From the IMG/VR virus record IMGVR_UViG_2571042390_000001: DNA of 64,000 nucleotides, one strand, 5' to 3'. This document shows positions 5,450-60,620 of this stretch, piece by piece; positions within the stretch are counted from its first letter, which is position 1; each line of letters opens with the position of its first letter. Origin of the DNA: a virus (lineage: Duplodnaviria; Heunggongvirae; Uroviricota; Caudoviricetes). The notes below the pieces were generated by a model. It was given only the letters and a program-made list of their open reading frames with translations. It made no database searches and was not told where the DNA came from. A program made the position numbers and the translations under genes.

Positions 5450-6448
5450 ATGCAATCACTGAATACTGTTACGGATCGCTTCTCCCTGGTAGAGAAAATC
5501 CGCAAACACACACCGCAGAACAACCGAAATTACGTCATTCAGTCGGTACGAGACACATTCAACTCGCCAGAAACAAAAGAGCGTATCGCGCTGGGTGAGA
5601 TGTATGGTTATTACGGTCATGGTCGCCGGGCGATGCACTATAACAAAACGAAAAGCCTGAACTTGCCGGAAGTCTCTGTTGTGATGGTAGATGGGAAGCC
5701 TGTTGTATTGGAGAACGTGCCGTCAAACAGGACTATCGACATTTCGATTGACGACAACGGCATTGTTACTCATACGCAGGAAATACTGGATACAGACACC
5801 GGGCGTATTGTTCAGGGCATGATTAATTCTGGTGCTGGTGGTTGGTCGTGGGCTACATCTGGTCCAGATTCATCGGTATCCCTGGTAAAGTCTTTCCACG
5901 GCTTTGATTACGTAACTGTGCCTAACTATATCAGCCTCGACAAGAAAAGCCTGATGCTTGAATCAGCAGAAGAGCGCGATGCGGCTATTCATGCAGCACT
6001 TATCGAACAAGGTTTTACCGATAACGCTGCTACGGATCTGGTTCACCACTTTTCAGCAATGAAAAATCAGCAAGCCATGCTCGAATCTGCACATCGTGAA
6101 GCCCTGGAATCAGAATTGATGCTCCTTGAAGTGGAAAACATACAGCTTCGAGATAAGCTGCGCGCTCAAACAGCGATGATGGAAAGCCAGGGGGAAAATG
6201 CAAAGCAATACCGCCGGATTTTGCGTGAAGCTATCCAGGAAATGCCTGTTTTTATCAGCGCAGAACAGCGCCGGGCGCTCTGCCGTATGCAGTCTGAAGA
6301 TGATGCCCGCATAGTGGCTGCGATGCTTGAATCTCTTGGGGCAAATGCTACTTATGGCTTACCGGTATCAGGCAAGAAAGAACCAGAGTTATCACCGAAG
6401 GAGAACAAAAACACTACCCCGTTACTCTTCGTTTCCAGAAGGGGGTAA
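5450..6448 (+). CDS. Hypothetical protein with C-terminal coiled coil (possible scaffold or head-processing role)
   Basis: Heptad-like region LMLLEVENIQLRDKLRAQTAMMESQ; tight linkage to upstream ORF. Confidence 0.45.
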   Translation: MQSLNTVTDRFSLVEKIRKHTPQNNRNYVIQSVRDTFNSPETKERIALGEMYGYYGHGRRAMHYNKTKSLNLPEVSVVMVDGKPVVLENVPSNRTIDISIDDNGIVTHTQEILDTDTGRIVQGMINSGAGGWSWATSGPDSSVSLVKSFHGFDYVTVPNYISLDKKSLMLESAEERDAAIHAALIEQGFTDNAATDLVHHFSAMKNQQAMLESAHREALESELMLLEVENIQLRDKLRAQTAMMESQGENAKQYRRILREAIQEMPVFISAEQRRALCRMQSEDDARIVAAMLESLGANATYGLPVSGKKEPELSPKENKNTTPLLFVSRRG

Positions 6449-6466
6449 TCGCCTTGTTAAGTTAAA

Positions 6467-6475
6467 TTTCTAACA
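6467..6475. promoter_or_regulatory. Operator-like motif TTTCTAACA (candidate C1-type repressor site)
   Basis: One of about 15 intergenic copies of the same core; upstream of ORF 6649. Confidence 0.45.
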
Positions 6476-6562
6476 TAGTGTATTTATATACACTGTTGAT
6501 CCTGGTGGATGGGATCGAGTAGGATCGCGGTCACTGCTCCGGTAGCGACTGCCAAAAAAGCA

Positions 6563-6590
6563 AAAGCCGCTTCTCAGCGGCTTTTTGGGT
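6563..6590 (+). terminator. Rho-independent terminator (possibly bidirectional)
   Basis: aaagccgc/gcggcttt stem flanked by an A-run and a T-run. Confidence 0.6.
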
Positions 6591-6648
6591 GTATAAATCC
6601 ACTGCCATAGATTTATACGGTAGATAGATTTTTTCACGGAACTATCTG

Positions 6649-7611
6649 GTGAGTATTTTAAATTCAGTTTCAGTAACTTTCAACACTTCTGAGTATAAAA
6701 ACAACACTGAATACCACAAAAAAATCAAAGGTCATCAGTTGAGTTTTTTTGCTCGTCATAGCGGTCTTCTTTCCCCTTCACATAGCGCCATTATTGCCGA
6801 GTTCGCCAACCTGGCAGGGTCTACCGATGAATACATGATCCGTCGCTCATATGCTGATATGTCCGAGATTACAGGACGCAGTATTTCTACTGTGCGCCGG
6901 GCATTTGCTGAAGCGACGAAGTGCGGAATGCTTGTTAAGCAACATCAGGTAGCGAATAACAATGCCCAGGTGTGTAACGTATATCGGTTTACGACACAAT
7001 TTCTCCACTTCATTCATGTAGCAATGGAGATAGGGGGTAAGCAGGGCATCAAATTTGCCAACGCCACAAAACTGGTTAAGCAGTTGATTTCAAAGGTTCG
7101 TTATTTTTTTGAAACTGGGAACCCCCTGTTCAAATTGAACAAGTCCCCCCATGTTCAAAATGAACAGCCAATAGAAAATAAGAGTCACTCTATAGCCAAA
7201 AGAAGAGAAAGATCATGCGCGGTTCAGCCAAAGGCTTCACCTGCAGATAGTTCTCAAACGGATAACGGGGTACTGGATAAAAAACCAGTAATCAGGGAAG
7301 AACATACCAACCACTGCCTGGCGGCGGCAAAAGCGAGAGCTGCAAAGCGTCGTTCAGACGAGGGGCACGCAAAACGGCAGGCTCTGTATCGTACCGCTGA
7401 AAATCTGGCAAAAAAATTTGCATGGATACGTAGTGCCGCTACCGCAGTGAATAAGCCTAAACAATCCAGTGCCCTAGATTTCTCAATGGATTATTCTGGC
7501 TCCCAGGGGTGTGCAACCATTGGTGAAGCCTTTGACCTGATGAAACAGCGTGGCTATCGGTCTGAATTTGACCGTGAGGATTGGTCAATCCCTGCGGGAT
7601 TTAGGGGATGA
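6649..7611 (+). CDS. Putative DNA-binding protein (320 aa)
   Basis: HTH-like segment RSISTVRRAFAEATKCGMLV; operator-like motif upstream. Confidence 0.45.
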   Translation: MSILNSVSVTFNTSEYKNNTEYHKKIKGHQLSFFARHSGLLSPSHSAIIAEFANLAGSTDEYMIRRSYADMSEITGRSISTVRRAFAEATKCGMLVKQHQVANNNAQVCNVYRFTTQFLHFIHVAMEIGGKQGIKFANATKLVKQLISKVRYFFETGNPLFKLNKSPHVQNEQPIENKSHSIAKRRERSCAVQPKASPADSSQTDNGVLDKKPVIREEHTNHCLAAAKARAAKRRSDEGHAKRQALYRTAENLAKKFAWIRSAATAVNKPKQSSALDFSMDYSGSQGCATIGEAFDLMKQRGYRSEFDREDWSIPAGFRG

Positions 7612-7665
7612 CCTGTGTGTCTACAAAACATCCCAATGATCGGAAAATGCTCGGCCGATTATTTA

Positions 7666-7674
7666 TGTTAGAAA
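7666..7674. promoter_or_regulatory. Operator-like motif (TGTTAGAAA, reverse orientation) upstream of immI-like module 1
   Basis: Core motif plus variant TTTCTAAAA at about 7687-7696. Confidence 0.45.
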
Positions 7675-7899
7675 ATTAATTTGCTGTTTCTAAAACGGAA
7701 TGTATGATCTGCATCATCGACTGAAGTCATCCATTGCTGAAATTTTTAGTTGATCTTCCATGTTTTCAGGCTTATATTCATGCCGTCGTAGCAAATTCTG
7801 CGACCGGGTTTGACAGCCTGAATGTTAGTGCGGACAACCGCAGATTTCCGATATTGCGGTATTTTTGTGTCCGTAAACCGCGTTACGCCCGAATTATGG

Positions 7900-8000
7900 T
7901 GGGGCGTGATGGGGAGGCTTCGGCCTGCTGGTTTCACTAACGCCAGTCTGTCAACCCTGTCACGTCCTGCCACCTGTTTGACAGCGGGTGGCAGGTTGTT
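7900..8000 (+). ncRNA. Candidate c4-like antisense regulatory RNA (immI type), copy 1
   Basis: Non-coding region before icd-like gene; hairpin about 7966-7995; segments about 7921-7926 and 7935-7941 complementary to RBS region about 8007-8019. Confidence 0.35.
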
Positions 8001-17393: not shown

Positions 17394-17529
17394 AAATAAC
17401 AGGTTGGGTAAATGCCATGCGATTTACCCTCCTTGTTGATTAAGGTCACTCTTTACTCTAAAAGCAAATCCGACCTGTTGCATATAGACCATCCTTGAGT
17501 AGTATCTCTCTTGTTTTACAAATCTAACG

Positions 17530-18024
17530 TTGTTGTTATTATTTCGCATATTTACTATCAATGGGTGTGTTAGAAAAATAGCGCGAAAGAGAAGGCGTCG
17601 CAGTGAATATTCTGAAACATCCCCACATGCCGCAGCTCTTAGAGAACTGGAGAAAAACCCAGATCTAATCAAAAGGAACCATGAGCATTACGAGCAGGTT
17701 CGCGTCCTGGACTGGATGTATCGCAATATGCGTTATGTGTATGAGCATACTCACGCCACTCCAAACGGTGGCCTGCGAGGCATAAGGACGGCAATAAAAA
17801 TGGTGGCAGAGGGCCAAAAGAAGGGATATCCCGATCTTTCTATAGACCTTGCTTGTGGGGGATACCACGGAATGCGCATTGAGATGAAACATGGGAGAAA
17901 TCGCCTGACTCCCGAACAACTCGTCTGGATGACTCGCCTCACAGAAGCCGGTTACTACTGCTTTGAGGCGCGCAGTGCCGCTGAAGCCATAAAAGCTATC
18001 ACGGAGTATGTTTGTCTTGATTAA
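17530..18024 (+). CDS. VRR-NUC domain nuclease-like protein
   Basis: KKGYPDLSIDL ... RIEMKHGRNRLTPEQ PD-(D/E)xK-type motifs; true start is probably internal to the track ORF. Confidence 0.5.
   Translation: MLLLFRIFTINGCVRKIARKRRRRSEYSETSPHAAALRELEKNPDLIKRNHEHYEQVRVLDWMYRNMRYVYEHTHATPNGGLRGIRTAIKMVAEGQKKGYPDLSIDLACGGYHGMRIEMKHGRNRLTPEQLVWMTRLTEAGYYCFEARSAAEAIKAITEYVCLD
17568..17576. promoter_or_regulatory. Operator-like motif (TGTTAGAAA)
   Basis: Core motif in 5' region of the VRR-NUC ORF. Confidence 0.4.
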
Positions 18025-18569: not shown

Positions 18570-18610
18570 TTTATTGCATCTTTCGATACTGTCATCAAAC
18601 TAATAAAATA

Positions 18611-18619
18611 TGTTAGAAA
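18611..18619. promoter_or_regulatory. Operator-like motif (TGTTAGAAA)
   Basis: About 30 bp upstream of ORF 18649. Confidence 0.45.
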
Positions 18620-18648
18620 AATAATTTAACAAAGTAACGGGAATAGCA

Positions 18649-19857: not shown

Positions 19858-20509
19858 TGTGTTAGAAATCTAAAATCACAATTCGAATGTATTGATTGTG
19901 AAGATAACTTAACATAGAATTTTCCTTGCTGGTGGGCGGTACCCACGTTTCGCTTGCTGGGCTTGATAGTCACTTATTGGTTATTGTTCGCCCACCAGCA
20001 TTTAACAAATTAAAGTGTTAGAAATGTATAGTAATGCAAGAGCACGCTTTGGCACCGTGCAGGCCAAAGTTCAGCAGGTTTAGTGCGGAAAGTGGTTTCA
20101 GAGAGAGCACTTTGCGGAGTAAACGACAATACATGTTGAGCCACGGAAGGTCTTTTTAAGGTGTTCATTGATGATGGTCCGGCAGAGAGTAACGGTACAT
20201 GCTGCATCTAATCATCAATGCACATCTTCAACATTAAGGAGGCATAGGGATTTTTGTGGCGGTTACCTTTTGCCCTGAGTCTCCTTAATGTTGCGGTAAT
20301 GCACCTATGCGGATGTGGCCTTGCATTGTGTCTTGAAAGAATGGGGTAAGGCCGGGGATATCCCCAGGGGGAGGCACCCCCGCTGCAACGAACAGCCACA
20401 GACGGCAGTCGAGTGATGGAAACGTGTAAAGACTTTAAACCTCGTTACGGCTGGCGTGGCAAACGCGACAACCGAGACAGAGCGGTGACGGGCGGAGAGA
20501 GTGCCGCAT

Positions 20510-21092: not shown

Positions 21093-21167
21093 GATGGTGT
21101 AGCTCAGCGGTAGAGCAGTTGGCTGTTAACCAACTGGTCGGTGGTTCGAATCCACCCACCATCGCCA
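21093..21167 (+). tRNA. tRNA-Asn (anticodon GTT)
   Basis: Cloverleaf: acceptor GATGGTG/CACCATC, T-arm GGTGG-TTCGAAT-CCACC, anticodon loop CTGTTAA, 3' CCA. Confidence 0.8.
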
Positions 21168-21172
21168 ATTTA

Positions 21173-21259
21173 GGGGAGTTAGTCCGTAGGGGTAGCGGGG
21201 TAGACTGTAAATCTACTGTCATTGCGACTCGGGTGGTTCGACTCCATCACTCCCCACCA
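21173..21259 (+). tRNA. tRNA-Tyr (anticodon GTA), long variable arm
   Basis: Acceptor GGGGAGT/ACTCCCC, anticodon loop CTGTAAA, type II variable arm, 3' CCA. Confidence 0.7.
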
Positions 21260-21263
21260 AATT

Positions 21264-21339
21264 GCCGGTTTAGCTCAGTTGGTAGAGCAGTCGCTTTGTA
21301 AGCGAATGGTCAGCGGTTCGATCCCGTTAACCGGCACCA
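21264..21339 (+). tRNA. tRNA-Thr (anticodon TGT)
   Basis: Acceptor GCCGGTT/AACCGGC, D-arm TAGCTCAGTTGGTAGAGC, anticodon loop TTTGTAA, 3' CCA. Confidence 0.8.
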
Positions 21340-21408
21340 ACACAACAGGTAAGAGCATTTGTAGAGTTCGACTCTCTACCGTGGGCTTTTTCCCGCGATG
21401 CGAGCCAT

Positions 21409-21439
21409 AAATGCTCTTACCGTTGTGATGAAGTGCAGC
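21409..21439. repeat. tRNA-array-associated repeat, copy R1
   Basis: aaatgctcttaccgttgtgatgaagtgc; 3' strand of a long hairpin that follows tRNA-Thr. Confidence 0.4.
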
Positions 21440-21650
21440 TCTTTGAAGCAACCAGAAGATAAGCATCTGGCTTCACAACATAAACCGCAGGAACGACCAA
21501 TAAACGGTAGTCCGTATGGAGAACACCCCGTTGAGGAAGAGGTCTGGCCGGAACCGTAACCGGCACTACAACGTTGAGAACACTGGCGTAACGGGGTCAT
21601 ATCCCAATCTACGAATAAATGTTGCGTTGCAGCGTGACAACCAGTGTTCT

Positions 21651-21674
21651 CAACATTGTGGTGAATGCGCAGGC
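21651..21674. repeat. tRNA-array-associated repeat, copy R2
   Basis: caacattgtggtgaatgcgcaggc; preceded by inverted repeat gttgagaacactgg/ccagtgttctcaac. Confidence 0.35.
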
Positions 21675-21793
21675 TGATGCGCGAAAGACATTGCAGCTAT
21701 TGCGGAAAAGAGCTGTTCGGCGGGGCAATTAAACGCCCGTGAGAGTCTGAAATAACCGCAAGCCGGAGATCAGCACCGGTCGCCACAATAACG

Positions 21794-21880
21794 GGAGAGT
21801 AGGGAGCATGGTGCTCAAGCGGTCTTGAAAACCGTCCCATTGCGCAAGCGATGATGGTTCGATTCCATTACTCTCCGCCA
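21794..21880 (+). tRNA. tRNA-Ser (anticodon TGA), long variable arm
   Basis: Acceptor GGAGAGT/ACTCTCC, anticodon loop CTTGAAA, type II variable arm, T-loop TTCGATT, 3' CCA; position 8 atypical. Confidence 0.6.
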
Positions 21881-21974
21881 GTGCAACATTAAGGGTATTT
21901 GGCTAATTAAGCGAATGCCGGAAGCAGAACCGGATCACCAAATGCGTACAGGCGTCATCGCCGCCCAGTCAGCC

Positions 21975-22004
21975 AAATGCTCTTACCATTGCGGTGAATG
22001 CGGC
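21975..22004. repeat. tRNA-array-associated repeat, copy R3
   Basis: aaatgctcttaccattgcggtgaatgcggc; follows tRNA-Ser. Confidence 0.4.
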
Positions 22005-22171
22005 TAAGCGCACGCGGAACAGTTAAAACAGTAAAGGTGGTCTTTTTACTGGCGTAACGAGAATCCATAAGTGATCCGGCGTTAATTGTTAACTGGTTAA
22101 CGTCACCGGGAGGCGCCCGGCACCGCAACCTAACAGCAATGGCGTTTTGTCTTAAAAGGTGGCTGCAAGTG

Positions 22172-22300
22172 ATGGATTTTTGGGCGTTTGCCGATAAAAA
22201 CCCGGAGTGGACATTATTGTTTCTGCTGGTGGTTGCATACGGGGTAGAGCAAGCGGCAAAAGCCTTACGCGGTTCTGGCAAAAAGCGTAAGCGTAATTAA
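22172..22300 (+). CDS. Small hydrophobic ORF (42 aa) inside the tRNA cluster
   Basis: AGGTGG RBS 8 nt upstream of ATG; predicted TM segment WTLLFLLVVAYGV and basic tail; below track size cutoff. Confidence 0.25.
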   Translation: MDFWAFADKNPEWTLLFLLVVAYGVEQAAKALRGSGKKRKRN

Positions 22301-22309
22301 CAGTAATCT

Positions 22310-22385
22310 GGCCCTTTAGCTCAGTGGTTAGAGCGGGCGACTCATAATCGCACGGTCACCGGTTCAAGTCCGGTAGGGGCCACCA
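22310..22385 (+). tRNA. tRNA-Ile2-like (anticodon CAT; may read AUA after lysidine modification, or be tRNA-Met)
   Basis: Near-identical in outline to E. coli ileX-type tRNA: GGCCC(T)TTAGCTCAGTGGTTAGAGC ... CTCATAA ... GGTTCAAGTCC ... CCA. Confidence 0.75.
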
Positions 22386-23805: not shown

Positions 23806-23826
23806 CATTAGATATTTAGTATTAAT

Positions 23827-23835
23827 TTTCTAATA
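23827..23835. promoter_or_regulatory. Operator-like motif variant (TTTCTAATA) upstream of lpa-like gene
   Basis: P1 lpa is a known C1-controlled gene; same position here. Confidence 0.4.
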
Positions 23836-23913
23836 CATTCATCTTTTTACCAGTCTATACAGTTTTAACATTCTCATTATCATCCCCTCGGTCATTTCCT
23901 GCCCGGGGGATTA

Positions 23914-24306
23914 ATGGAACAAATCAGCAGCGCAGAAATTGCGGATATCATGATCAGGGCTGACTGCTATCTGACAGTCACTGAAATTACCACTCTCGCC
24001 AAAGAAAAATACCCTCATCTCCATGTTTCACGAGTAAGTGTAACTAACATCATTCGTCATTTTGTTCGTTCAAGCAGGGCAATCTGTGAGCTTGATGATC
24101 GTGTTTACCCACGAAAATACTGGTTGCATGGCCTGAACGGATATCAGTTCAAGGTGCGTGGGCGAACCCCTGAATATGGCAGTTTACTGGTTAAAAACTG
24201 TAGCAGGAAATCAGTCGAACAGGCGCGAAAAGAGCAACGAGAGCTGGTGGACATGGCGAATAAGCTGTGGAATGCCGCCGTTAAAAAGCGTGGTGTTGCT
24301 TTATGA
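23914..24306 (+). CDS. Hypothetical protein; possible late-promoter activator (Lpa-like) by synteny only
   Basis: Immediately upstream of pacA-like/pacB-like genes, as lpa is in P1; operator-like motif upstream. Confidence 0.4.
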   Translation: MEQISSAEIADIMIRADCYLTVTEITTLAKEKYPHLHVSRVSVTNIIRHFVRSSRAICELDDRVYPRKYWLHGLNGYQFKVRGRTPEYGSLLVKNCSRKSVEQARKEQRELVDMANKLWNAAVKKRGVAL

Positions 24307-27202: not shown

Positions 27203-28240
27203 TTACCAGAGCTTCGCGGCGTACTGCGTTTGGGGGAATGTGTATCCGTAACGTTCTTCGATTGCTTTGCCGTATTTTTTACGAGCTTCATTCAGTTTTA
27301 TGCCGGTCAGGTCGTCTCCAGAGGCCATCATTACGTCTAACAATTCCAGATCCATTTTATCCAGCCTTGCCATTGCTTCACGTGATGTACGTATCTTACG
27401 CTCAATGATATGGCGAATAGCCGGATCGGCATCCTCCAGCATCTTAGCGGATTTCTGCTTAAGGCTTTCATTGCGAATATCGATGTTCCTTAAGATGTAC
27501 GACTTCGCAACGTAGCTTGGCTGGTGTTTTTCCAGGTCACGAACACGATATAAGTTAAAATCGCCGAGAAGGCTGCAAGGTACCGATTCGACGCCAGAAT
27601 AAATTGTAATGCTCCGGCGCTCACCAACATTATTGACAACGGGGATCGTTGTCTTCGGTAGTCTTGCGAAAACCAATGCGCCATGTGCGCCAACTCTAAA
27701 GCGAGAAAGGGCATTGCTGCCTTCGATGTTTGTTGTCAGCACAACATCTGTATATGCCTCTTTACGCGCCCGGTAGATCTCGCCTTCAGGCTCAGCTTCA
27801 AAGAAGCGCTGTTCTTCTTCAAGAGCACCTACGATTTGAGAAAAAACCCTATTTTTCAGGCTTTTCTTTATGATTTTGTCGTATTTTTTGAGCAATTGTT
27901 CACGTGTAAATGTACGTGTTGTTGTAGCGCTTTGCACAACAACATGCGTGCTTTGATTGGTGTCCTCAATGATGAATGGGATCGGAGAATATACAGACTC
28001 AACAATGTTCGACGCTTTGCCGTCGGCATCGCGGCACATGTCAACGAAGGCTTTCCATTCAGCAAGACATTTTTCAGCTTCTTCTAATATGTTTTGGTCA
28101 TGCGTTAATGCAACATGGCGGAATTCCTCGCCAGCATAACTGGTATCATGGAAAACAGAGTTTGCGACCACCAGCTCTTTCCACCGTTCAGCGGTTTGCA
28201 GGAACCGTTTGTACTCTTTCTCGATCGACTTCTTACTCAT
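27203..28240 (-). CDS. Hypothetical protein (345 aa); candidate C1-like repressor by position
   Basis: Sits between pacB-like and lox-cre as c1 does in P1; operator-like motif directly upstream; no sequence-level confirmation. Confidence 0.4.
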   Translation of the reverse strand: MSKKSIEKEYKRFLQTAERWKELVVANSVFHDTSYAGEEFRHVALTHDQNILEEAEKCLAEWKAFVDMCRDADGKASNIVESVYSPIPFIIEDTNQSTHVVVQSATTTRTFTREQLLKKYDKIIKKSLKNRVFSQIVGALEEEQRFFEAEPEGEIYRARKEAYTDVVLTTNIEGSNALSRFRVGAHGALVFARLPKTTIPVVNNVGERRSITIYSGVESVPCSLLGDFNLYRVRDLEKHQPSYVAKSYILRNIDIRNESLKQKSAKMLEDADPAIRHIIERKIRTSREAMARLDKMDLELLDVMMASGDDLTGIKLNEARKKYGKAIEERYGYTFPQTQYAAKLW

Positions 28241-28259
28241 TATTCCTACTCGATTTAGT

Positions 28260-28268
28260 TTTCTAACA
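28260..28268. promoter_or_regulatory. Operator-like motif TTTCTAACA in the c1-like / cre divergent region
   Basis: About 20 bp upstream of the c1-like start codon. Confidence 0.45.
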
Positions 28269-28449
28269 TAAAATTACTATGACAAATTTATGTCGAATAA
28301 CAGAGTGAGTAAAGGATCGAACTGTGATTTTTTGTCATCAAATTTAGAAAACCAACTGTATAAACCACGCTTCGCAAATTAAAGACCATGAAGGCAACGT
28401 GTTACTGGTCAGAATCAATCTGTGATGGATTAAAAAAAATCGCCATTTT

Positions 28450-28634: not shown

Positions 28635-29663
28635 ATGAGTGAATTAATTATCTCTGGCAGCTCCGGTGGTTTTCTGCGCAACATTGGCAAAGAGTACCAG
28701 GAGGCCGCAGAAAACTTTATGCGGTTCATGAATGACCAGGGGGCTTATGCGCCGAATACTCTGCGCGACCTCCGGTTGGTGTTTCATTCATGGGCGCGCT
28801 GGTGTCACGCTCGCCAGCTTGCCTGGTTTCCGATCTCACCAGAAATGGCCCGCGAGTATTTTCTTCAGCTGCATGATGCCGATCTGGCTTCGACCACCAT
28901 TGATAAGCACTACGCCATGCTGAATATGCTGCTTTCGCATTGTGGCCTTCCGCCACTTTCGGATGATAAAAGTGTTTCTCTGGCTATGCGGCGCATCCGG
29001 CGCGAAGCGGCAACTGAAAAAGGCGAACGAACAGGCCAGGCTATACCGCTTCGGTGGGACGATCTGAAACTGCTCGACGTCCTGTTGTCCAGGTCAGAAC
29101 GGCTGGTGGACCTGCGCAACCGGGCTTTTCTCTTTGTTGCATACAATACGCTGATGCGTATGTCGGAAATCTCGCGTATTCGTGTAGGAGATCTGGACCA
29201 AACAGGTGACACTGTCACGCTACATATTTCACACACGAAGACAATAACGACCGCCGCCGGGCTTGATAAGGTGCTTTCCCGTCGCACTACCGCTGTGCTG
29301 AATGACTGGCTGGATGTTTCCGGGCTTCGCGAACATCCTGACGCAGTGCTGCTCCCGCCGATACACCGTAGCAATAAGGCCAGGATCACGACAACGCCCC
29401 TTACTGCACCTGCAATGGAGAAAATATTCAGCGACGCCTGGGTGTTGCTGAATAAAAGAGATGCTACGCCAAACAAAGGAAGATACCGGACGTGGACCGG
29501 GCATAGTGCACGCGTCGGGGCCGCTATTGATATGGCTGAAAAGCAGGTGTCTATGGTGGAGATCATGCAGGAAGGAACCTGGAAGAAACCGGAAACACTT
29601 ATGCGGTATCTTCGCCGTGGCGGCGTGTCTGTGGGGGCTAATAGCCGCCTGATGGATTTGTAA
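28635..29663 (+). CDS. cre: Cre-like tyrosine recombinase
   Basis: WTGHSARVGAAIDMAEKQVSMVEIMQEGTWKKPETLMRYLR parallels the Cre C-terminal catalytic region (WSGHSARVGAARDMARAGVSIPEIMQAGGWTNVNIVMNYIR). Confidence 0.85.
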   Translation: MSELIISGSSGGFLRNIGKEYQEAAENFMRFMNDQGAYAPNTLRDLRLVFHSWARWCHARQLAWFPISPEMAREYFLQLHDADLASTTIDKHYAMLNMLLSHCGLPPLSDDKSVSLAMRRIRREAATEKGERTGQAIPLRWDDLKLLDVLLSRSERLVDLRNRAFLFVAYNTLMRMSEISRIRVGDLDQTGDTVTLHISHTKTITTAAGLDKVLSRRTTAVLNDWLDVSGLREHPDAVLLPPIHRSNKARITTTPLTAPAMEKIFSDAWVLLNKRDATPNKGRYRTWTGHSARVGAAIDMAEKQVSMVEIMQEGTWKKPETLMRYLRRGGVSVGANSRLMDL

Positions 29664-29668
29664 ATTAA

Positions 29669-29677
29669 ATTTCTAAC
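29669..29677. promoter_or_regulatory. Operator-like motif TTTCTAACA downstream of cre
   Basis: Upstream of ORF 29737. Confidence 0.4.
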
Positions 29678-29736
29678 ACATCTTTTTAGATTAACGCCTT
29701 TGCTGTAAAGTACCCTCGCCTATTTAGGAGGGTGCT

Positions 29737-30081
29737 TTGCAGAGCCAAATCACGGAATCAAGACGCTTCAAGGTGGATGGTTACACCGTAACCTTCGCCG
29801 CTGGTGTTAAGAACAGTCATGCTGTTGTTGTGTTCGGCATCATGACCGGGCTTGAGGCCGTCCCTGTGTTTACCCTCGAAAAAAACTGGCGAAATCTGGA
29901 GGAAGCAGAAAGCTACGTCCGGAAAGTAACCATCATTGCCGCCGAAAAACTCCTGGCCCACTATCAGGAAAATTATCGCACTATGGTCGAGAAGATTAAT
30001 CTCGCTTTCACTCGCCCCACTACCGGCTTTATTGCACCGAATACTAATGCAGGTCGATATCCGGCAAGGGGGCGTCGGTGA
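29737..30081 (+). CDS. Hypothetical protein (114 aa)
   Basis: TTG start with AGGAGG RBS. Confidence 0.45.
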   Translation: MQSQITESRRFKVDGYTVTFAAGVKNSHAVVVFGIMTGLEAVPVFTLEKNWRNLEEAESYVRKVTIIAAEKLLAHYQENYRTMVEKINLAFTRPTTGFIAPNTNAGRYPARGRR

Positions 30082-39685: not shown

Positions 39686-40351
39686 TTACTCTTCTTCCTC
39701 ACGCCCAAGATATGAAAGAGATGTGACTGCTGTTGCATGGAAACCACAAACCTTGCTAAGTGCGCTTTTAAACTCTTCAAGGTCGGATTGCGATTTGATT
39801 CTGAAAGGTGACTGCGCAATCCCGGACATGGTAATGCCACTAACATTGCTCACTGCGTTGTAGTGATATACGTGCCTATTAGCTGATTGAGTCACGCGTT
39901 CCTGTTGGCTGTTTATATTGGCATCCTGCCCTGTGGTGGTCTTCTCCAACTCTTCGATACGTTCAGCCATCGCAGCACACTCTTCAAAGTTGCTTGATGC
40001 TTTTCTCTCCCATTCGGCGCATTGTTTTCCAAGCTCTGCAATCAGCTTGTCTTTGCCTTCAAGCTCAACACGCAGCTTCCCTACCGTTAGCGCAATATCC
40101 TCGTTCTCCTGGTCGCGAGATTTGATGTATTGCTGGTTTCTTTCCAGTTCATCCAGTAATGCCAAAGCAACCTTTGGATTAAAGGCAGCAATAAATTCAG
40201 CGTTGTTTTTCAGAACGTGTTGCGCAATGGCCTGACCACTTAGTCGGACCTTATAACCACGTGCGCCACGGTGTGGTTTATATGAGTCCCAGTCTCCCCA
40301 CGTTGCTTTCTCTGCCGCCTCACGCAGTGCCTGGTAATTAATTTTGCTCAC
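39686..40351 (-). CDS. Ead/Ea22-like protein
   Basis: N-terminal YQALREAAEKAT motif typical of lambdoid Ea22-like proteins; central coiled coil. Confidence 0.5.
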   Translation of the reverse strand: MSKINYQALREAAEKATWGDWDSYKPHRGARGYKVRLSGQAIAQHVLKNNAEFIAAFNPKVALALLDELERNQQYIKSRDQENEDIALTVGKLRVELEGKDKLIAELGKQCAEWERKASSNFEECAAMAERIEELEKTTTGQDANINSQQERVTQSANRHVYHYNAVSNVSGITMSGIAQSPFRIKSQSDLEEFKSALSKVCGFHATAVTSLSYLGREEEE

Positions 40352-42940: not shown

Positions 42941-43936
42941 TCAGTTATTGAACGTGATCACTCCGCGCTCAATGGCGAAGTCGAAAAGCTGGTTAGCGGC
43001 TACGTAAAGGCGTATGCCATGTGCTTTTTCCCATGCCCGGACATCGTTTTCTGCGCTTCTGGCGCAGTCATCGCAAAGAGGAACAGTCCAGCGGTCGTGT
43101 TCGTTTAACGAGCGGGCGCGGTACATGAATGGGTGATTAACCTTGCCGCCGCAGCCTACACACGGGCGAGACACCACAAACCGGAGATAAGCCGGGCTTT
43201 TTCCGAGTAAGGTTTTTGGACGGCGCATATATAGGAGGCCAGAATCTTCATCGACGGACAGATTGACGATCTGCTCTGCGGAAATATCCACCAGCTCGCG
43301 GGTACTATGCTCCCAAGTAATATCCGACTCTTTCAGAGTGCCGGTAGGGATTTCAGTTTTTGGCTGACAAAATGCAATGCGACCAGCTTCATCAGGCAGT
43401 TCGTCTTTAAGATTCCGGCGAATGGCCCAAAAGGTGAGTTCAACCATGCTCAGATCGCGATCTGGCGGAAGTTTTAACTCGCTGGCAGCCCAGTTCATAA
43501 TCCAGTTGGCGCGATTCAGTGACAGTTGGTCTTCCAGCTTGCCGTATCCCTTCATCATGTATTCCGCATCATGCTTCCAGCACAGGCGAACGGCAGAACC
43601 GTTATAGAAATGGGTGGTTAGCTGGTGGCTGCAATCGCGCTTATCATGCACCTGGCAATCGTGAATGTTGGTGCTAACCCAGTGAACGAGAGAATCCTCA
43701 CCACCTAACGCGTTAAATACGCGCTCACTTTGAAAAAAGGGTGCCAGTGACTGGTTGGCAACCAGTGAATAATTCAGGTCAACGACACCATCAGGGGTGT
43801 TTTCAGCCTGTTCACGCGGCAATGGGGATATAAGAAAACGGCGTCCTGCGCCGATGTAATTGCTGGTGGGCTTATCTACAGGAAAGACAGCCACACCAGT
43901 TTCATTTACGACATATGGGGTGATTATTGCACTCAT
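42941..43936 (-). CDS. Hypothetical protein (331 aa) with C-terminal Cys/His cluster (zinc-finger or HNH-like)
   Basis: CVGCGG ... NHPF ... VPLCDDC; paired operator-like motifs upstream. Confidence 0.45.
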   Translation of the reverse strand: MSAIITPYVVNETGVAVFPVDKPTSNYIGAGRRFLISPLPREQAENTPDGVVDLNYSLVANQSLAPFFQSERVFNALGGEDSLVHWVSTNIHDCQVHDKRDCSHQLTTHFYNGSAVRLCWKHDAEYMMKGYGKLEDQLSLNRANWIMNWAASELKLPPDRDLSMVELTFWAIRRNLKDELPDEAGRIAFCQPKTEIPTGTLKESDITWEHSTRELVDISAEQIVNLSVDEDSGLLYMRRPKTLLGKSPAYLRFVVSRPCVGCGGKVNHPFMYRARSLNEHDRWTVPLCDDCARSAENDVRAWEKAHGIRLYVAANQLFDFAIERGVITFNN

Positions 43937-43978
43937 AATGCATACCGACTCTGTTTTGTTCCGATCGGTAAAATAATA

Positions 43979-44007
43979 TGTTAGAAAACTAAAATCAATG
44001 TTCTAAC
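43979..44007. promoter_or_regulatory. Paired operator-like half-sites (TGTTAGAAA ... TTCTAAC) upstream of ORF 42941..43936
   Basis: Two inverted copies of the core spaced about 13 nt apart. Confidence 0.45.
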
Positions 44008-46663: not shown

Positions 46664-46830
46664 AACATAAGCACTGCGAAAAGCTCAATACCAAGCTCAA
46701 GTAGCGCCAACGCCCCGAAAAACAACACATAGAACAGGCCAATCTCATTCACAGATGGCTGGTGGATCGCACTTAAAGCTATAAGCATCATGTCCTCCAA
46801 ACAGTTATCAGGAATGATATTAATGTTTTG

Positions 46831-46860
46831 TGTTAGAAAATCAATTTTGAATATCTAACC
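46831..46860. promoter_or_regulatory. Paired operator-like motifs in the divergent region upstream of ref
   Basis: TGTTAGAAA at 46831-46839 plus ATCTAACC at about 46853-46860; P1 ref is C1-controlled. Confidence 0.45.
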
Positions 46861-46908: not shown

Positions 46909-47487
46909 ATGCAGAAACAGAGTTATTGGGAGAAACAGAGACAAAAAGCCATGCAAAAATTGGCTGACCCGGCCTGGCGAGAGGAACAAAGGGCAAAGCG
47001 CCTTCAACAAGCTCAACGCCAGCAGCAGCGAGCGAGAGAAAAAGCCGCATCGCCTGAATATCGGCAAAAGAAAATTGAAAAAGCAAAGCAATATGAACAG
47101 CGGAGAAAAGATAAAGCTGTATCCGCTCCGTCCAAAAAAACACGCACGTCACGCGGCCTGAAAGGCAGATCACTCACAGCCGATGAACGCCGGATACAGA
47201 CCGCTATCGGTGCTCTCCCCTGCATTGCCTGCCATATTCACGGGCAACATAGCCCAGTGGTATCCCTGCACCATATCTTCGGGAGAACGGCAGAGAACGC
47301 GCATAAATATGTCCTCCCTTTGTGTAAATGGCACCACCAGTACGCAGCGCCAGCCGAGGTCAGAGAACAATATCCCTGGCTGGTCCCTGTTCATGCTGAC
47401 GGAAAAATAGGCGGAAAAGCAGATTTCATGCGGCACAATGCCGATGAAATGACGTTGTATCAGATGGCGATTGAGTTGATAAATTAG
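46909..47487 (+). CDS. ref: Ref-like HNH endonuclease (recombination enhancement function)
   Basis: Highly charged N-terminus followed by Cys/His core ALPCIACHIHGQH ... LPLCKWHHQ; operator-like motif upstream. Confidence 0.6.
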   Translation: MQKQSYWEKQRQKAMQKLADPAWREEQRAKRLQQAQRQQQRAREKAASPEYRQKKIEKAKQYEQRRKDKAVSAPSKKTRTSRGLKGRSLTADERRIQTAIGALPCIACHIHGQHSPVVSLHHIFGRTAENAHKYVLPLCKWHHQYAAPAEVREQYPWLVPVHADGKIGGKADFMRHNADEMTLYQMAIELIN

Positions 47488-47488
47488 T

Positions 47489-47497
47489 TTTCTAACA
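47489..47497. promoter_or_regulatory. Operator-like motif TTTCTAACA
   Basis: Immediately after ref stop, upstream of immI-like module 2. Confidence 0.4.
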
Positions 47498-48091
47498 TTT
47501 TAAGTTGAATTGAAAAACTCTCCGATGTACATTCACTACCGATTGGCACACCGGTCAACTTTTTGAGACAAACTGTTTAGTTTTTCGTATTATTGCCTCC
47601 GCCATACCTATGGCGGTGCAATATAGGTGGCTGAAAAGCCCCCGTTGACTCACGGTGTTCCAGCCTTTATTGCGCCGCCACCAGACCGTGGAACAGTCGA
47701 TGGCGGCTCCGAAAGCAAGGAGTCACAACACTATGAACAACTACAGTCTTTTCCCATCACTCGTCTTCCACCACTCACGCGATAATCTGCATTCTTTGCT
47801 CGCGCCGGGGGTGTCAAAATGACTGTTCGCTACCTCAACTTTCAAATCAAGAACATTACTGGCGGTTGCTATGACTGGTTTGTCACTCTCGGAAAAGAAG
47901 TGATCACCGGGAAGCTGGATGAAGTGAAAGCTAAAGCAATGGCCTACGCCTGCAAGCAAGTCAGGAAGAAATCCGCCAAAGCATAAAATACTGACTGTTG
48001 CGCCCTGGCATTATCGTGGGGTATATTTCTACGGCACCTTAGAAAAACGGGTGCCGGGATTGGAACCCCGGATAATGTCAAAGGCGACACA

Positions 48092-48113
48092 GACGCCGAA
48101 CGCGTCTTTTTTT
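48092..48113 (+). terminator. Rho-independent terminator
   Basis: gacgc/gcgtc stem followed by T7. Confidence 0.5.
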
Positions 48114-48149: not shown

Positions 48150-48260
48150 CTCAGAGATCAATGGTAGTGCTGGCTGGGCTGCCGAAAGGCAGGCCGGTTC
48201 CCTTTGACGCCGGTAGTTCCAACCCAGTCAGTGCTACCGCCATTGAGATTGGAACCTCAC
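48150..48260 (+). ncRNA. Candidate c4-like antisense regulatory RNA, copy 2
   Basis: Segments at about 48187-48191 and 48200-48206 complementary to RBS region of icd-like gene 2 (about 48280-48294). Confidence 0.35.
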
Positions 48261-51781: not shown

Positions 51782-52117
51782 TCACATTAGTAGCTTTGTT
51801 AACTCCCTCAATACCAGGTAGAAGAGTAACAAAAACACTGACGTGGATACCTGCTGAGTTAAAGAAGCACTAATAAATTTATTCAATAAATCAATCAGCT
51901 TATTAAAAATATTCATCTTTTCGAATCCATTCGATCGGTAAATAACACCCAGCTCACTATCGAGCTGGTCCACGCCTTAAGATTAATGAAAGTCACTTGT
52001 TGACAGTCAATAAATTCCAGGGTGGCGAAAAAACTCTGTCTATACGGATAGTGCTTGCATTTTACTCTTTCTGTGTGTAGCGTATATACACAGGTTGCAC
52101 GCACGAATGGAATTATT

Positions 52118-53111: not shown

Positions 53112-54297
53112 TTTCCTGAAAAACCAGGACGGGCGCTATATCACTGACGGTCTGTCCTCTAAGGACTTCACGCGTATATTCGAGCTTATCAGGAAAGAAC
53201 AAACCCGTAAGCGCCGACAAGCTCACCGGACGCTGACGCCAGGTAGACTGAGGAACAAATCCGCCGAAGATATTCTCAAGTTAGGGAAGAAAAAAGGCGG
53301 CACGTTCTTCACGCGAGACGACCTGAAAGGTTTCGAAAAGCTACGGAGTAAAACACGCGAAAAATATGACAGCAAGACGGCTGGCATCACATACGCCCAG
53401 CTGGTGGCATCCAGCCAGGCAATCGATATTAAGCGTGCAAATAACGCCGTGGATGACGGATCTGGTATCAAAAGAGCTACCCCCGTATCTCTTCGCCACA
53501 ACGTGATTAATATCCGCGTAGAAGCATCGGATATATCCGTCCACCAGCACCATATCGTCCGGATACGCTTTGAAGAATGGGATCAGATGGTCGATGACAT
53601 CGCAGAAGACGATAAATCAGCTCTCAAAATCACTAAATCACTGTGCGCCGGGCGAGTGTCTTTCGATTGTGACTGTGGTCGTCATCAATACTGGTATCGT
53701 TACATCGCTACTGCGGGTAACTTTGCCCTGGCCCCGCCAAAAGAATACGCCTATCCAAAAGTTCGTAACCCTAAGCTACAAGGCGTCGCCTGTAAACACG
53801 TGATCCACTCAATGACGCGGTTACAGTCCGCAAGTTGGCAAATGAGTATTGCTCGTGCACTACAAAAGGCTGCAACGCAAATTGCATTTGGTGACGATCG
53901 CCGCCGTACAACCAAACACTTCTCAAAAGAAGACGAGAAGGAGTTTAATCGCAATCGTAGCAGTAAAACGAACGTTGACGCTGCCAAGCGAGAATGGAGA
54001 CTCTATCAGAAGCGCCAGGCCGCTTTAAGCACAAAACTGGCAAAGGACAACGGCAAGATTGACAAGCTACGTGACCAACTGACCAAGGCCAGAAAGTTGT
54101 CAGACGCACAGAAAAAACGGGCGGCAGCAAAAGAAGCGGCGTTGCAACGTGAGAAACAGAAAAACAAGGAGCTTCAGCAACGCCTGGCCGATCAGTTCGC
54201 ACTGAAGAAGCAGGCGTTTATTGATGCGCTTGTCATGGCAGGAACGCCACAAGAACATGCTGAAAAAATGTTTATGGCGTATGTAAAAAAAGCATAA
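53104..54297 (+). CDS. SWIM-like zinc-finger protein with basic coiled-coil tail (397 aa)
   Basis: CDCGRH ... (37 aa) ... CKHVIH CxC...CxH arrangement; Lys/Arg-rich C-terminus. Confidence 0.45.
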   Translation: MPDFLKNQDGRYITDGLSSKDFTRIFELIRKEQTRKRRQAHRTLTPGRLRNKSAEDILKLGKKKGGTFFTRDDLKGFEKLRSKTREKYDSKTAGITYAQLVASSQAIDIKRANNAVDDGSGIKRATPVSLRHNVINIRVEASDISVHQHHIVRIRFEEWDQMVDDIAEDDKSALKITKSLCAGRVSFDCDCGRHQYWYRYIATAGNFALAPPKEYAYPKVRNPKLQGVACKHVIHSMTRLQSASWQMSIARALQKAATQIAFGDDRRRTTKHFSKEDEKEFNRNRSSKTNVDAAKREWRLYQKRQAALSTKLAKDNGKIDKLRDQLTKARKLSDAQKKRAAAKEAALQREKQKNKELQQRLADQFALKKQAFIDALVMAGTPQEHAEKMFMAYVKKA

Positions 54298-59005: not shown

Positions 59006-59655
59006 AGCGTAGAGCGCAAATTGTTGGAACTGTGCACCCGGCAGGGCTTATGCGTGCTCAAGTCCGTGTTTTACCTGACTGGAATGGCGTTCCTGATGAC
59101 GATCTACCCTGGGCGGAATACCTGTTACCCATCGGAAACGCTTTTGTACCCACAGTCAAAGGTGACCTGGTCTGGGTAGAGTTTCCTTATTTAGATGTTA
59201 ACGGTCGAATAGACACCAGACGCCCAATGATAGTTGGTGCCGCTCAGGATGCACCGGGAGGAATTCCAAACGTTGCACCAGAAGCATCTGGCAAAGGCAA
59301 CGGCTGGACGCCGCCGGAAGTAGATGGAGCACCTCCCCGCCCCCAAATCTCAGCAACGAAAGACTTCGTTATTCACCGCAACAATATTCTTGAAGTACGA
59401 ACTGCTGGTGGCGGCTATGAAATTGCCAATACGGCAGCAGGCTCAAGGATTGGCATGAATGAGTCCGGGCAGATATATATCATTGGTCCGGCTGATGTAA
59501 TCGTGAATGCAGGAGGGAGTGTTAACGTCAAATCAGCCAACAACATCAATGTTAATGGGGAAAATATTGCTGTCACCGCTAACGGGGACATAGCTTTCAA
59601 GGCAGGGGGAACCTTTCAGGCCACTGCTGGCAACTTCGATTTCAAGAAAGGATAG
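59002..59655 (+). CDS. gpV/gp5-like baseplate spike-type protein
   Basis: N-terminal VKGDLVWVEF ... RRPMIVGAA OB-fold-like motif and C-terminal G/N/V-rich beta-helix-like repeats. Confidence 0.5.
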   Translation: MKRRAQIVGTVHPAGLMRAQVRVLPDWNGVPDDDLPWAEYLLPIGNAFVPTVKGDLVWVEFPYLDVNGRIDTRRPMIVGAAQDAPGGIPNVAPEASGKGNGWTPPEVDGAPPRPQISATKDFVIHRNNILEVRTAGGGYEIANTAAGSRIGMNESGQIYIIGPADVIVNAGGSVNVKSANNINVNGENIAVTANGDIAFKAGGTFQATAGNFDFKKG

Positions 59656-59664
59656 AAAATGCAC

Positions 59665-59708
59665 CCATTTGTGTTAGATAATTAACGCGTATTTTCTAAC
59701 ACAAATGG
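59665..59708. promoter_or_regulatory. Palindromic operator-like site upstream of hrdC-dmt
   Basis: ccatttgtgttaga ... tctaacacaaatgg perfect inverted repeat containing the core motif twice. Confidence 0.55.
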
Positions 59709-59714
59709 TGAGAA

Positions 59715-60620
59715 ATGAGATCAGTCGCTTTCAAAAATATCTTCATCTATCGTCTTTCACGCGAAGTTAGCTGGGATACTGCAGAAGTAAATGCAGCCCT
59801 TAGCAAGTTTGTGTTTACCCCATGCGGTTCTCAGGATATGGCTAAAGCTGGTTGGACCTCCGTTCTTGGTGACAACCTCACACATGAATACCAGGGTTTT
59901 CTGCTAATACAGCATAAGCGAGAAGAAAAAATTCTCCCCTCGCAGGTGCTCAAGGAAGAGTTGCAGAAAAAAGTCCTGAAACTCGAAGAAGAGCAAGCCC
60001 GCAAGCTGAAGAAAACGGAAAGAGACAGTCTTAAAGATGAAGTCCTGCATTCACTTTTGCCTCGCGCGTTCACGAGAAAATCACTTGCCAAAATCCTGAT
60101 CGACCGCAGCAACCATCTGGTATTCGTTGAGGCAAGCAGCGCCAAAAAGGCAGAGGACCAGCTGGCTTTATTGCGAAAATCGCTCGGCAGCCTGCCTGTC
60201 ATTCCATTCACACCACGCGAACCGCTGGAAATTACAATGACCGAGTGGTTTAAAAGCGGCTTCCCTGCCGGATTTACAGCAGGTGAAGACGCCACATTAA
60301 AGGGTCTGCTCGATAATGGTGGTGCCGTTCGCTGCAACAAAGTTGATCTACAGTCCGACGAGATTATGTCTCACATTGAGGCGGGGAAAGTAGCTACGAC
60401 CGTTGCAATTAACTGGATGGAACGCGCGTCGTTCAGAGTCAACGATGATATGAGTATCAAAGCCCTGACATTCTGTGATGATCTCTATGACCAGAATGAC
60501 GATATCGACCGGGAGGATGTAGCACAACGATTTGATGCTGATTTCGTGCTCTTTACGGGCGAATTATCTGCACTGTTTAACGCGCTGGTGGAGGCCATTG
60601 GCGGTGAAGCAGAACGTTAA
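59715..60620 (+). CDS. hrdC: RdgC homolog (P1 hrdC-like recombination-associated protein)
   Basis: N-terminal [12 protein letters not shown] ... [14 protein letters not shown] matches the RdgC family; precedes dmt as in P1. Confidence 0.7.

Follow-up and report, generated by a model that had tools for sequence, protein, structure and literature searches.

We have analyzed a window of 64,000 nucleotides (the whole stretch of viral DNA presented above, IMG/VR record IMGVR_UViG_2571042390_000001, on which all positions are counted) that comes from a plasmid prophage close to Escherichia phage D6. Dispersed between its genes is a short motif with the core TTTCTAACA, which is very probably the operator set of the C1-type prophage repressor of the element, i.e., an altered-specificity version of the control system known from phage P1. 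That C1 binds these sites, that it represses through this binding, and how each site lies with respect to its promoter, we infer from sequence comparison. The relationship of the element to P1 had been predicted and was borne out: by megablast it is D6-like, with 96–98% identity to D6 (MF356679) over most of the shared segments and, on sequence similarity, D6 is a distant relative of P1 and the window belongs to a D6-like, P1-related plasmid prophage.

The exact core was found 12 times on both strands (6467, 7666, 17568, 18611, 19860, 20016, 28260, 29670, 43979, 46831, 47489 and 59693), while dinucleotide shuffles gave an expectation of 0.51 copies and at most three. The recurrence of the motif and the positions listed in the original prediction are thereby confirmed to within 1 nucleotide (nt) (29670, given there as 29669). 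In a blind k-mer scan this was the top word not containing Chi, outranked among the 9-mers by one Chi-containing word only. It had been proposed to search for the motif in intergenic DNA and to compare coding DNA; when the de novo scan was restricted to intergenic DNA the motif was the top 8-mer, and 11 of the 12 cores fell outside open reading frames (ORFs) of at least 90 amino acids (aa), the definition of coding DNA used for the intergenic counts, that is, in 17.5% of the window. The intergenic scan also recovers the known C1 operator in P1, a positive control that validates the method. A greedy ORF model with a lower limit of 50 aa was dropped because it over-calls coding DNA (92.5%) and places four sites in dubious small or over-extended ORFs. 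As a class, one-mismatch variants of the core were not enriched (24 against 16 expected), and those that look real are only the ones beside strong sites, at 7687, 23827 and 59672.

Alignment of the flanks widens the motif to about 19 base pairs (bp), with the asymmetric sequence AAnTTAnTTTTCTAACAyA, in which the core is accompanied by an AT-rich arm, in keeping with the AT-rich flanks described before. The 19-column matrix detects 15 sites of at least 15 bits at 11 loci (0.13 in shuffles), nearly all of them intergenic and spread over at least 53 kb; besides the 12 exact cores it picks up 17512-17530, 23819-23837 and 59670-59688. Taken singly, the sites lack symmetry and are dispersed, with only two near c1. 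Several of the sites had been described as inverted pairs and, actually, five of them share one fixed geometry, TTAGA-N16-TCTAA, which has five matches in the window against 0.02 expected, all at operator loci (7668, 23808, 43981, 46833 and 59674). These bivalent sites usually combine one strong and one weak half, and the one upstream of hrdC is alone in having two good halves. The sites at 17512-17530 and 28343-28353 and the weak partner half at 23808 were not in the earlier list. The complete set is given below together with the associated genes, with scores in bits of the 19-bp matrix and with P1 equivalents taken from the annotated P1 record AF234172.

6459..6477, + strand: operator between pro and repL, 28.0 bits; the repL ORF starts at 6649; P1 equivalent OrepL/Op53.
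7664..7695, unstranded: operator before the first C4-RNA/icd/ant module; strong half 7664-7682 (-), 29.5 bits, weak partner TTTCTAAAA at 7687-7695, TTAGA-N16-TCTAA; P1 equivalent Oc4/Op51.
7772-7824 (c4-a1b1 target) and 7892-7977 (C4 RNA), both from Rfam, + strand, then icd (8025) and ant (8249): first C4/icd/ant module, downstream of the 7664 operator.
17512-17530 and 17566-17584, - strand: direct-oriented pair before the pmgM (VRR-NUC) homolog, 15.5 and 22.8 bits, bracketing a promoter-like TTTACA-16-TATTAT and kept in the relative L023; P1 equivalents O26/Op82 and Oppp/Op83, which flank pmgL-pmgM in P1.
18609..18627, - strand: operator 22 nt before pmgS (PmgS-like, ATG at 18649), 28.3 bits; kept in the relatives L023, L031 and L037; P1 equivalent OpmgRa/b (Op86a/b).
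19858-19876 and 20014-20032, - strand: two sites after pmgS and ahead of the tRNA cluster (21093-22385, +), 26.5 and 20.3 bits, with a promoter-like TTGATT-17-TAGAAT between them; the pair is kept in relatives.
23808..23837, unstranded: operator before lpa, the late-gene activator (ATG at 23914); strong half 23819-23837 (+) with the core variant TTTCTAATA, 20.2 bits, weak inverted partner from 23808, TTAGA-N16-TCTAA; kept before lpa in relatives and bivalent in L031 and L037; P1 equivalent Olpa/Op94.
27203..28240, - strand: c1 homolog, 345 aa, the presumed motif-binding repressor; the D6 record calls the ortholog prophage repressor.
28252..28270, + strand: c1-proximal operator, 12 nt before the c1 ATG, 26.9 bits; P1 equivalent Oc1ab/Op99a.
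28343..28353, - strand: weaker c1-distal site, inverted relative to the proximal one and reading GGTTTTCTAAA on the - strand.
29662..29680, + strand: operator at the stop codon of dre (28635-29663), which encodes a Cre-like recombinase, 28.7 bits, 57 nt before the ORF 29737-30081.
43977..44007, unstranded: bivalent operator 41 nt before a pdcB-like gene (42941-43936, -); strong half 43977-43995 (-), 27.3 bits, weak partner TTCTAAC at 44001-44007, TTAGA-N16-TCTAA.
46829..46859, unstranded: bivalent operator in the divergent region between ref (Ref-like, ATG at 46909, +) and a leftward operon; strong half 46829-46847 (-), 26.7 bits, weak partner ATCTAAC at 46853-46859, TTAGA-N16-TCTAA; P1 equivalent Oref/Op2a.
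47481..47499, + strand: operator over the stop codon of ref and before the second C4-RNA/icd/ant module, 27.1 bits; positional counterpart of P1 Omat/Op2b, which lies at the 3' end of ref.
48034-48112 (isrK-like RNA) and 48157-48244 (C4 RNA), + strand, then icd2 and ant2: second C4/icd/ant module, downstream of the 47481 operator.
59665..59708, unstranded: bivalent operator upstream of hrdC (ATG at 59715), with inverted 19-mers at 59670-59688 (-) and 59685-59703 (+), 20.3 and 20.0 bits; P1 positional equivalent Odmt/Op68.

In P1 the same record annotates experimentally derived C1 operators, OrepL, Oc4, O26/Oppp, OpmgRa/b, Obanab, Olpa, Oc1ab, Oref, Omat and Odmt (the latter ahead of uhr-hrdC-dmt). 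The window sites map one-to-one onto the gene contexts of those operators, a correspondence that is one of position only. In the same positional sense, the claim that the sites lie at homologs of the operons controlled by C1 in P1 is supported at c1, lpa, repL, c4-icd-ant, ref and hrdC-dmt. The pair at 19858 and 20014 is likely the equivalent of Obanab/Op72, which in P1 lies ahead of tRNA-Asn/Thr, the gene target of the pair being uncertain. Rfam places two C4 antisense RNAs, one c4-a1b1 target element and one isrK-like RNA on the + strand, and from the two C4 RNA genes it follows that there are two ImmI-like C4/icd/antirepressor modules, with a C1-type site ahead of each. The site at 17566-17584 is the only one to fall within a gene annotated in D6, where it occupies the 5' part that a TTG start adds to the pmgM homolog (17530-18024, +). 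The TTG start of this gene, D6 orf12, precedes both the operator and the promoter-like site, and the next in-frame ATG, GTG or TTG is about 180 nt downstream; the start codon has probably been misassigned, since the match to the family starts only at residue 28-41.

It had also been claimed that no site lies upstream of late or structural genes. This holds with a qualification, because the pmgM and pmgS homologs do have sites ahead of them, just as their P1 counterparts have C1 operators. Over the whole of D6, the late block of 28 kb (about 26–54 kb) has no site of at least 14 bits and a single match of 12.1 bits, at D6 position 40003. We also considered the operator motif as a late-promoter element and discarded this option: the P1-type late-promoter pattern AAGTGACTT-N4-TANNNT is found at chance level (5 against 4.4 expected, plus one perfect match), so that the operator motif is not such an element. 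The perfect match to the P1 late promoter, AAGTGACTTTCATTAATCT, is located at 51980-51998 (-), near the mat/gene 26 region.

The product of 27203-28240 had been singled out as the candidate repressor and, on the evidence of three comparisons, it is a remote homolog of C1. BLASTP gave 21% identity to P1 C1 over 240 aa (E 2e-8), profile comparison with hhalign gave a probability of 95.6% (E 1e-8), and the family PF27008 (Phage_P7_repressor_C1) is assigned to all the database homologs of the product in their precomputed annotation. The AlphaFold model has a predicted local distance difference test score (pLDDT) of 79 and a predicted template modeling score (pTM) of 0.46. C1 homologs are present on 148 plasmids of PLSDB, clinical and food isolates included.

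We have compared the motif in 34 relative loci with a D6-type C1 (44–100% identical), found in two Logan contigs and 32 IMG/VR contigs. The core was present in 34 of 34 and the P1 core in none of them. In an Enterobacter plasmid with a C1 that is 42% identical, ATTTTCTAAC appears 8 times against 0.11 expected. In the Logan contig L009 (SRR12267734, C1 44% identical) the 9-mer AGTGTGAAG was found 6 times with 0.14 expected. A scan of genome contigs for C1 relatives confirmed none. The 10-mer TGTTAGAAA is located at -27 to -33 from the c1 start in 21 of 21 distinct upstream sequences, and no other long block upstream of c1 is invariant in a three-way alignment (A1) with the relatives that are 51% and 44% identical. 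The distal site, an inverted TTTCTAA, is found at -110 to -122 from c1 in all the D6-type loci even with the surrounding sequence changed. Between the two c1 sites a promoter-like TTTACT-17-TAAATT is conserved, with a variable spacer, and its placement would have c1 transcription start, in all likelihood, slightly upstream of the proximal operator, an arrangement that would be consistent with autoregulation. The site at the end of dre (29662) is kept at about -1430 to -1580 from c1 in all the relatives examined. The offsets of the sites that follow the recombinase gene, and of those before lpa, the tRNA region, pmgS and pmgM, also match among relatives.

The original prediction had proposed a C1-type specificity distinct from that of P1, and this is what the genomes indicate. 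D6-type sites number 15 in the window, 17 in D6 and 0 in P1, while P1-type sites (at least 14 bits) number 21 in P1 and 0 in both the window and D6, so that the two motifs are mutually exclusive between genomes. With no P1-type site in the window or in D6, this is a P1-like system outside the P1/P7 specificity class. The pentamer TCTAA had been noted as common to the core and the P1 operator, and it anchors the best matrix-to-matrix alignment, in the same orientation (AnTTTTCTAACAcA against ATTGCTCTAATAAA, 9 of 14 positions in common, score 4.37). The reverse-complement alignment, which matches the AT-rich arm to that of the P1 operator, scored lower (3.18 against 4.37) and was rejected.

TCTAA recurs in a third C1 clade. 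In a Citrobacter freundii plasmid, pCF5125-2 (L100), C1 is 29% identical to that of the window and 24% to that of P1, and TTCTAAGG ranks first among the intergenic 8-mers (present in 7 of the 7 counted segments, expectation 0.16, p 5e-10). Its copies occupy orthologous places, before rdgC/hrdC, ref, c1, lpa, pmgS and pmgM and following the recombinase gene and pro, examples being 5779, 13547, 13618, 18378, 19887, 26036, 26216 and 39814. A Pantoea agglomerans plasmid (L099), which probably belongs to the Citrobacter C1 clade, has a weaker pattern, AwTCTAAG, at 19874, 26293, 29577/29590, 30978/30990 and 32886. The paired sites of the Pantoea-type plasmid read TCTAA-N8-TTAG(T/A), as in Obanab of P1 and the reverse of the D6-type arrangement. 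Because TCTAA is common to the three clades, it seems to be contacted throughout the family, and the specificity would be set by the bases that flank it.

In the mechanism that we propose, the C1 homolog of a lysogen would bind asymmetric sites of about 17–19 bp, formed by TTTCTAACA and the AT-rich arm, either single or as paired inverted half-sites with the fixed N16 spacing. These sites would be at or next to the promoters of early and immunity operons, namely those of repL (lytic replication), lpa, both C4-RNA/icd/antirepressor modules, ref, hrdC-dmt, pmgM, pmgS, the tRNA operon and the operon that follows the recombinase. Occupancy by C1 would block their transcription, the site at c1 itself would provide autoregulation, and late genes would be silenced indirectly because lpa is off. 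Judging from the sequences, the different core should make the element heteroimmune to P1.

Several observations weigh against this explanation. Identity between the C1 homolog and P1 C1 is only about 21%, the model of the homolog matches no known DNA-binding fold and a sequence search of the PDB finds no solved relative, so that no DNA-binding surface was identified in it. Scans with the sigma-70 consensus are too weak to locate promoters at most sites, and at several the promoters they propose are weak or ambiguous. For lpa, the -10-like element with the best conservation is about 40 nt downstream of the site and the alignments do not fix the promoter. The bivalent geometry is also different, TTAGA-N16-TCTAA here and TCTAA-N8-TTAGT in Obanab of P1. 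Besides, Coi, Lxc, ImcA and ImcB of P1 have no tblastn match at E ≤0.01 in the window or in the whole of D6, and there is no ORF of more than 33 aa upstream of c1. Lxc is also reported to be absent from a D6-like plasmid (PMC6799933). With Coi and Lxc absent, the circuit is not identical to that of P1.

The absence of a recognizable DNA-binding fold in the C1 model would fit with real regulatory sites bound by some other protein, be it another regulator that the element encodes or a factor of the host, while C1 would act at other places or have no role, and any gene specific of the D6 lineage would covary with the motif likewise. However, the equivalent P1 positions are experimentally assigned C1 operators (PMC8546580) and the C1 homolog is the only ortholog of that binder here. 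In every relative there is a site near the c1 start (12 nt away in the window), which is a signature of autoregulation, and the motif type switches with the C1 clade, over three clades, in genomes that are otherwise syntenic. We therefore regard another binder as very unlikely. A promoter element recognized by RNA polymerase or by an activator (-10/-35 or UP-like, at early promoters) appears even less probable. The core does contain the -10-like TAACAT/TAACAC, several sites overlap promoter-like hexamers, e.g., TTGAGT-16-TAACAT at 47471, and the AT-rich flanks resemble UP elements; but the sites point either way with respect to the gene downstream and also form inverted pairs, something impossible for a directional element, their distances to start codons go from 12 to about 1060 nt, and the same positions in P1 are repressor operators. 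As for chance matches or functionless relics of a short dispersed repeat, short AT-rich words are indeed common in intergenic DNA, but the enrichment (12 against 0.5) is large, the motif is still the top word under an intergenic-only composition, and the sites hold their orthologous positions even next to flanks too divergent to be aligned, a conservation that effectively refutes this option, to which we give practically no credit. Operators of the C1-type repressor are thus the explanation that we favor.

The operator upstream of hrdC deserves separate treatment. Its 44 bp (59665-59708) had been described as a perfect palindrome, which was an overstatement: the 18-nt arms have one mismatch (94% complementary), the perfect match is confined to the outer 14 nt of each arm, and the 8-nt spacer is non-palindromic in register. 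The pattern TGTTAGAtaatt-N8-atttTCTAACA is kept in every D6-type hrdC locus with an HrdC at least 78% identical, and was not found at the more distant HrdC loci of other phage types. The invariant T.T position in the palindrome yields a -10-like GATAAT in the left half, within TAGAAA-18-GATAAT, and the operator would cover this -10 and the start site. The outer flanks (59665-59671 and 59702-59708, columns 16-22 and 53-59 of alignment A3) are lineage-specific yet complementary, with pairs such as CCATTTG/CAAATGG, CCAATTG/CAATTGG and GCAAAACTG/CAGTTTTGC. Changes on both sides were found at 6 pairs, and the covariation score was 0.228, compared with 0.089 in shuffles (0 of 500 reach the observed value) and 0.02–0.09 in slid controls. 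These covarying outer 5–7 bp lie beyond the operator consensus, which does not account for their covariation.

The palindrome could also, or instead, act as a hairpin, either as RNA in read-through from the tail operon or as a DNA cruciform, and it might in this way stabilize the 3' end of the upstream mRNA or partly mask the hrdC ribosome-binding site. In addition to the covariation outside the consensus, it has a strong RNA fold (-21.3 kcal/mol, z -5.7), and the other four bivalent sites have no extended symmetry of this kind. On the other hand, a terminator scan of 59300-60000 does not flag the palindrome as an intrinsic terminator, there is no T-run after it on the + strand (no U-tract after the stem) and the stem is AT-rich. 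The invariant T.T mismatch is better explained by the -10-like GATAAT than by pairing, and this promoter, if used, would start the transcript inside the loop, leaving one arm only. Furthermore, about four independent lineages are sampled, and long palindromes can stay symmetrical through template-switch repair, without selection. We find the hairpin rather unlikely, and a second, structure-based role of the hrdC palindrome, next to that of a C1 operator, is possible but unproven.

Tentatively, and with more doubt than confidence, we can extend these results to the whole C1 family of P1-like phage-plasmids. It may span at least three specificity (immunity) classes, P1/P7 with TTGCTCTAAT, D6-type with TTTTCTAACA and Citrobacter/Pantoea-type with ATTCTAAGG, all of which would keep the TCTAA contact and the regulon wiring and vary the flanking bases and the half-site geometry, with the hrdC operator perhaps having its second function based on structure. 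If this is true, sequence alone could suffice to assign phage-plasmids to immunity groups. The three classes with TCTAA would be a natural experiment in which a monomer-type repressor re-targets a whole dispersed regulon. The analysis adds two small points, the fixed bivalent geometry with the covarying hrdC palindrome and the evidence for at least three C1 specificity classes with a common TCTAA. D6-like phage-plasmids are common in E. coli and Salmonella, and the emerging ST213 lineage of Salmonella has been linked to a D6-like plasmid (PMC6799933). Together, operator sequence and site map provide a sequence-only test of immunity groups, i.e., of which phage-plasmids superinfect or co-reside, and a defined regulon for reading lysogen transcriptomes. 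They also offer an orthogonal repressor/operator pair, beside the Dre/rox recombinase from the same region that is already in use.

Gene identities in the window come from the D6 annotation, PHROG scans, tRNA and Rfam scans, and tblastn with P1 proteins. The + strand of the window corresponds to the - strand of D6, and the D6 span covered goes roughly from 27 kb down to 1 and from 91 kb down to 60 kb. Most of the tail/baseplate/sheath/capsid block and the plasmid replication region are outside the window. Many E. coli plasmids of 90–95 kb match it at 95–99%. Compared with D6, the window carries insertions, deletions and replaced segments, with other genes at about 35–43 kb, and it lacks the tciA/tciB segment (22133-22170 against D6 6281-6909). 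It has five tRNA genes (21093-22385, +; Asn, Tyr, Thr, Ser and a Met/Ile-like CAT), three being annotated in the D6 record, where their strand is the opposite of that given by ARAGORN in the window. The most over-represented word of the window is the Chi octamer GCTGGTGG, with 44 copies in 64 kb against about 5 expected, 30 on the + strand and 14 on the - strand (e.g., 466, 5834, 19928 and 59404), and it ranked first as well in all the relatives examined (L008, L009, L098-L100).

The lambda operators are dyad-symmetric sequences of 17 bp, clustered in two arrays (OL and OR) beside cI and bound by dimers. Like the lambdoid CI/Cro operators, the sites described here are predicted to be bound by a prophage repressor, to keep lytic promoters silent and to serve the autoregulation of the repressor gene. 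Unlike them, they lack dyad symmetry and are distributed among 11 loci that span at least 53 kb, and the repressor has no detectable similarity to CI. The resemblance to D6 (MF356679; immC fragment AY753669) is close, with the same sites in the same places and 17 matrix matches. Neither of these two GenBank records annotates any operator. A full-text literature search for D6 operators gave nothing relevant, although the D6 genome and immC papers were not covered by it and an earlier description is possible, and a search with the motif string gave unrelated primer matches only. D6 also has an extra strong D6-type site at 54201-54219 of MF356679, in a part not covered by the window, upstream of orf52 and divergent from the major capsid gene, with no obvious P1 counterpart.

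The operators of the ImmC system of P1/P7 are named Op2, Op21, Op51, Op53, Op55, Op68, Op72ab, Op82, Op83, Op86ab, Op88, Op94 and Op99a-e. P1 C1 binds 22 dispersed asymmetric operators of 17 bp, with the consensus ATTGCTCTAATAAATTT, and controls repL and lpa (PMC8546580). The D6-type system shares with that of P1/P7 a homologous repressor (PF27008), the many dispersed, asymmetric, intergenic operators, both mono- and bivalent, the location of these at c1, lpa, repL, c4-icd-ant, ref, the 3' end of ref, hrdC-dmt, pmgM, pmgS and the tRNA operon, and the TCTAA pentamer inside the conserved core. It differs in the core itself (TTTCTAACA here and TTGCTCTAAT in P1/P7), in the AT-rich arm, which is on the other side of TCTAA, in the larger repressor (345 aa against 283 aa of P1 C1) and in having two C4/icd/ant modules with antirepressors of another family. 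P1 KilA, Ban, Ssb, Uhr and C8 have no homolog in the window or in D6. Overall, the P1 paradigm would be extended by these operators, and the current understanding of it is not overturned.

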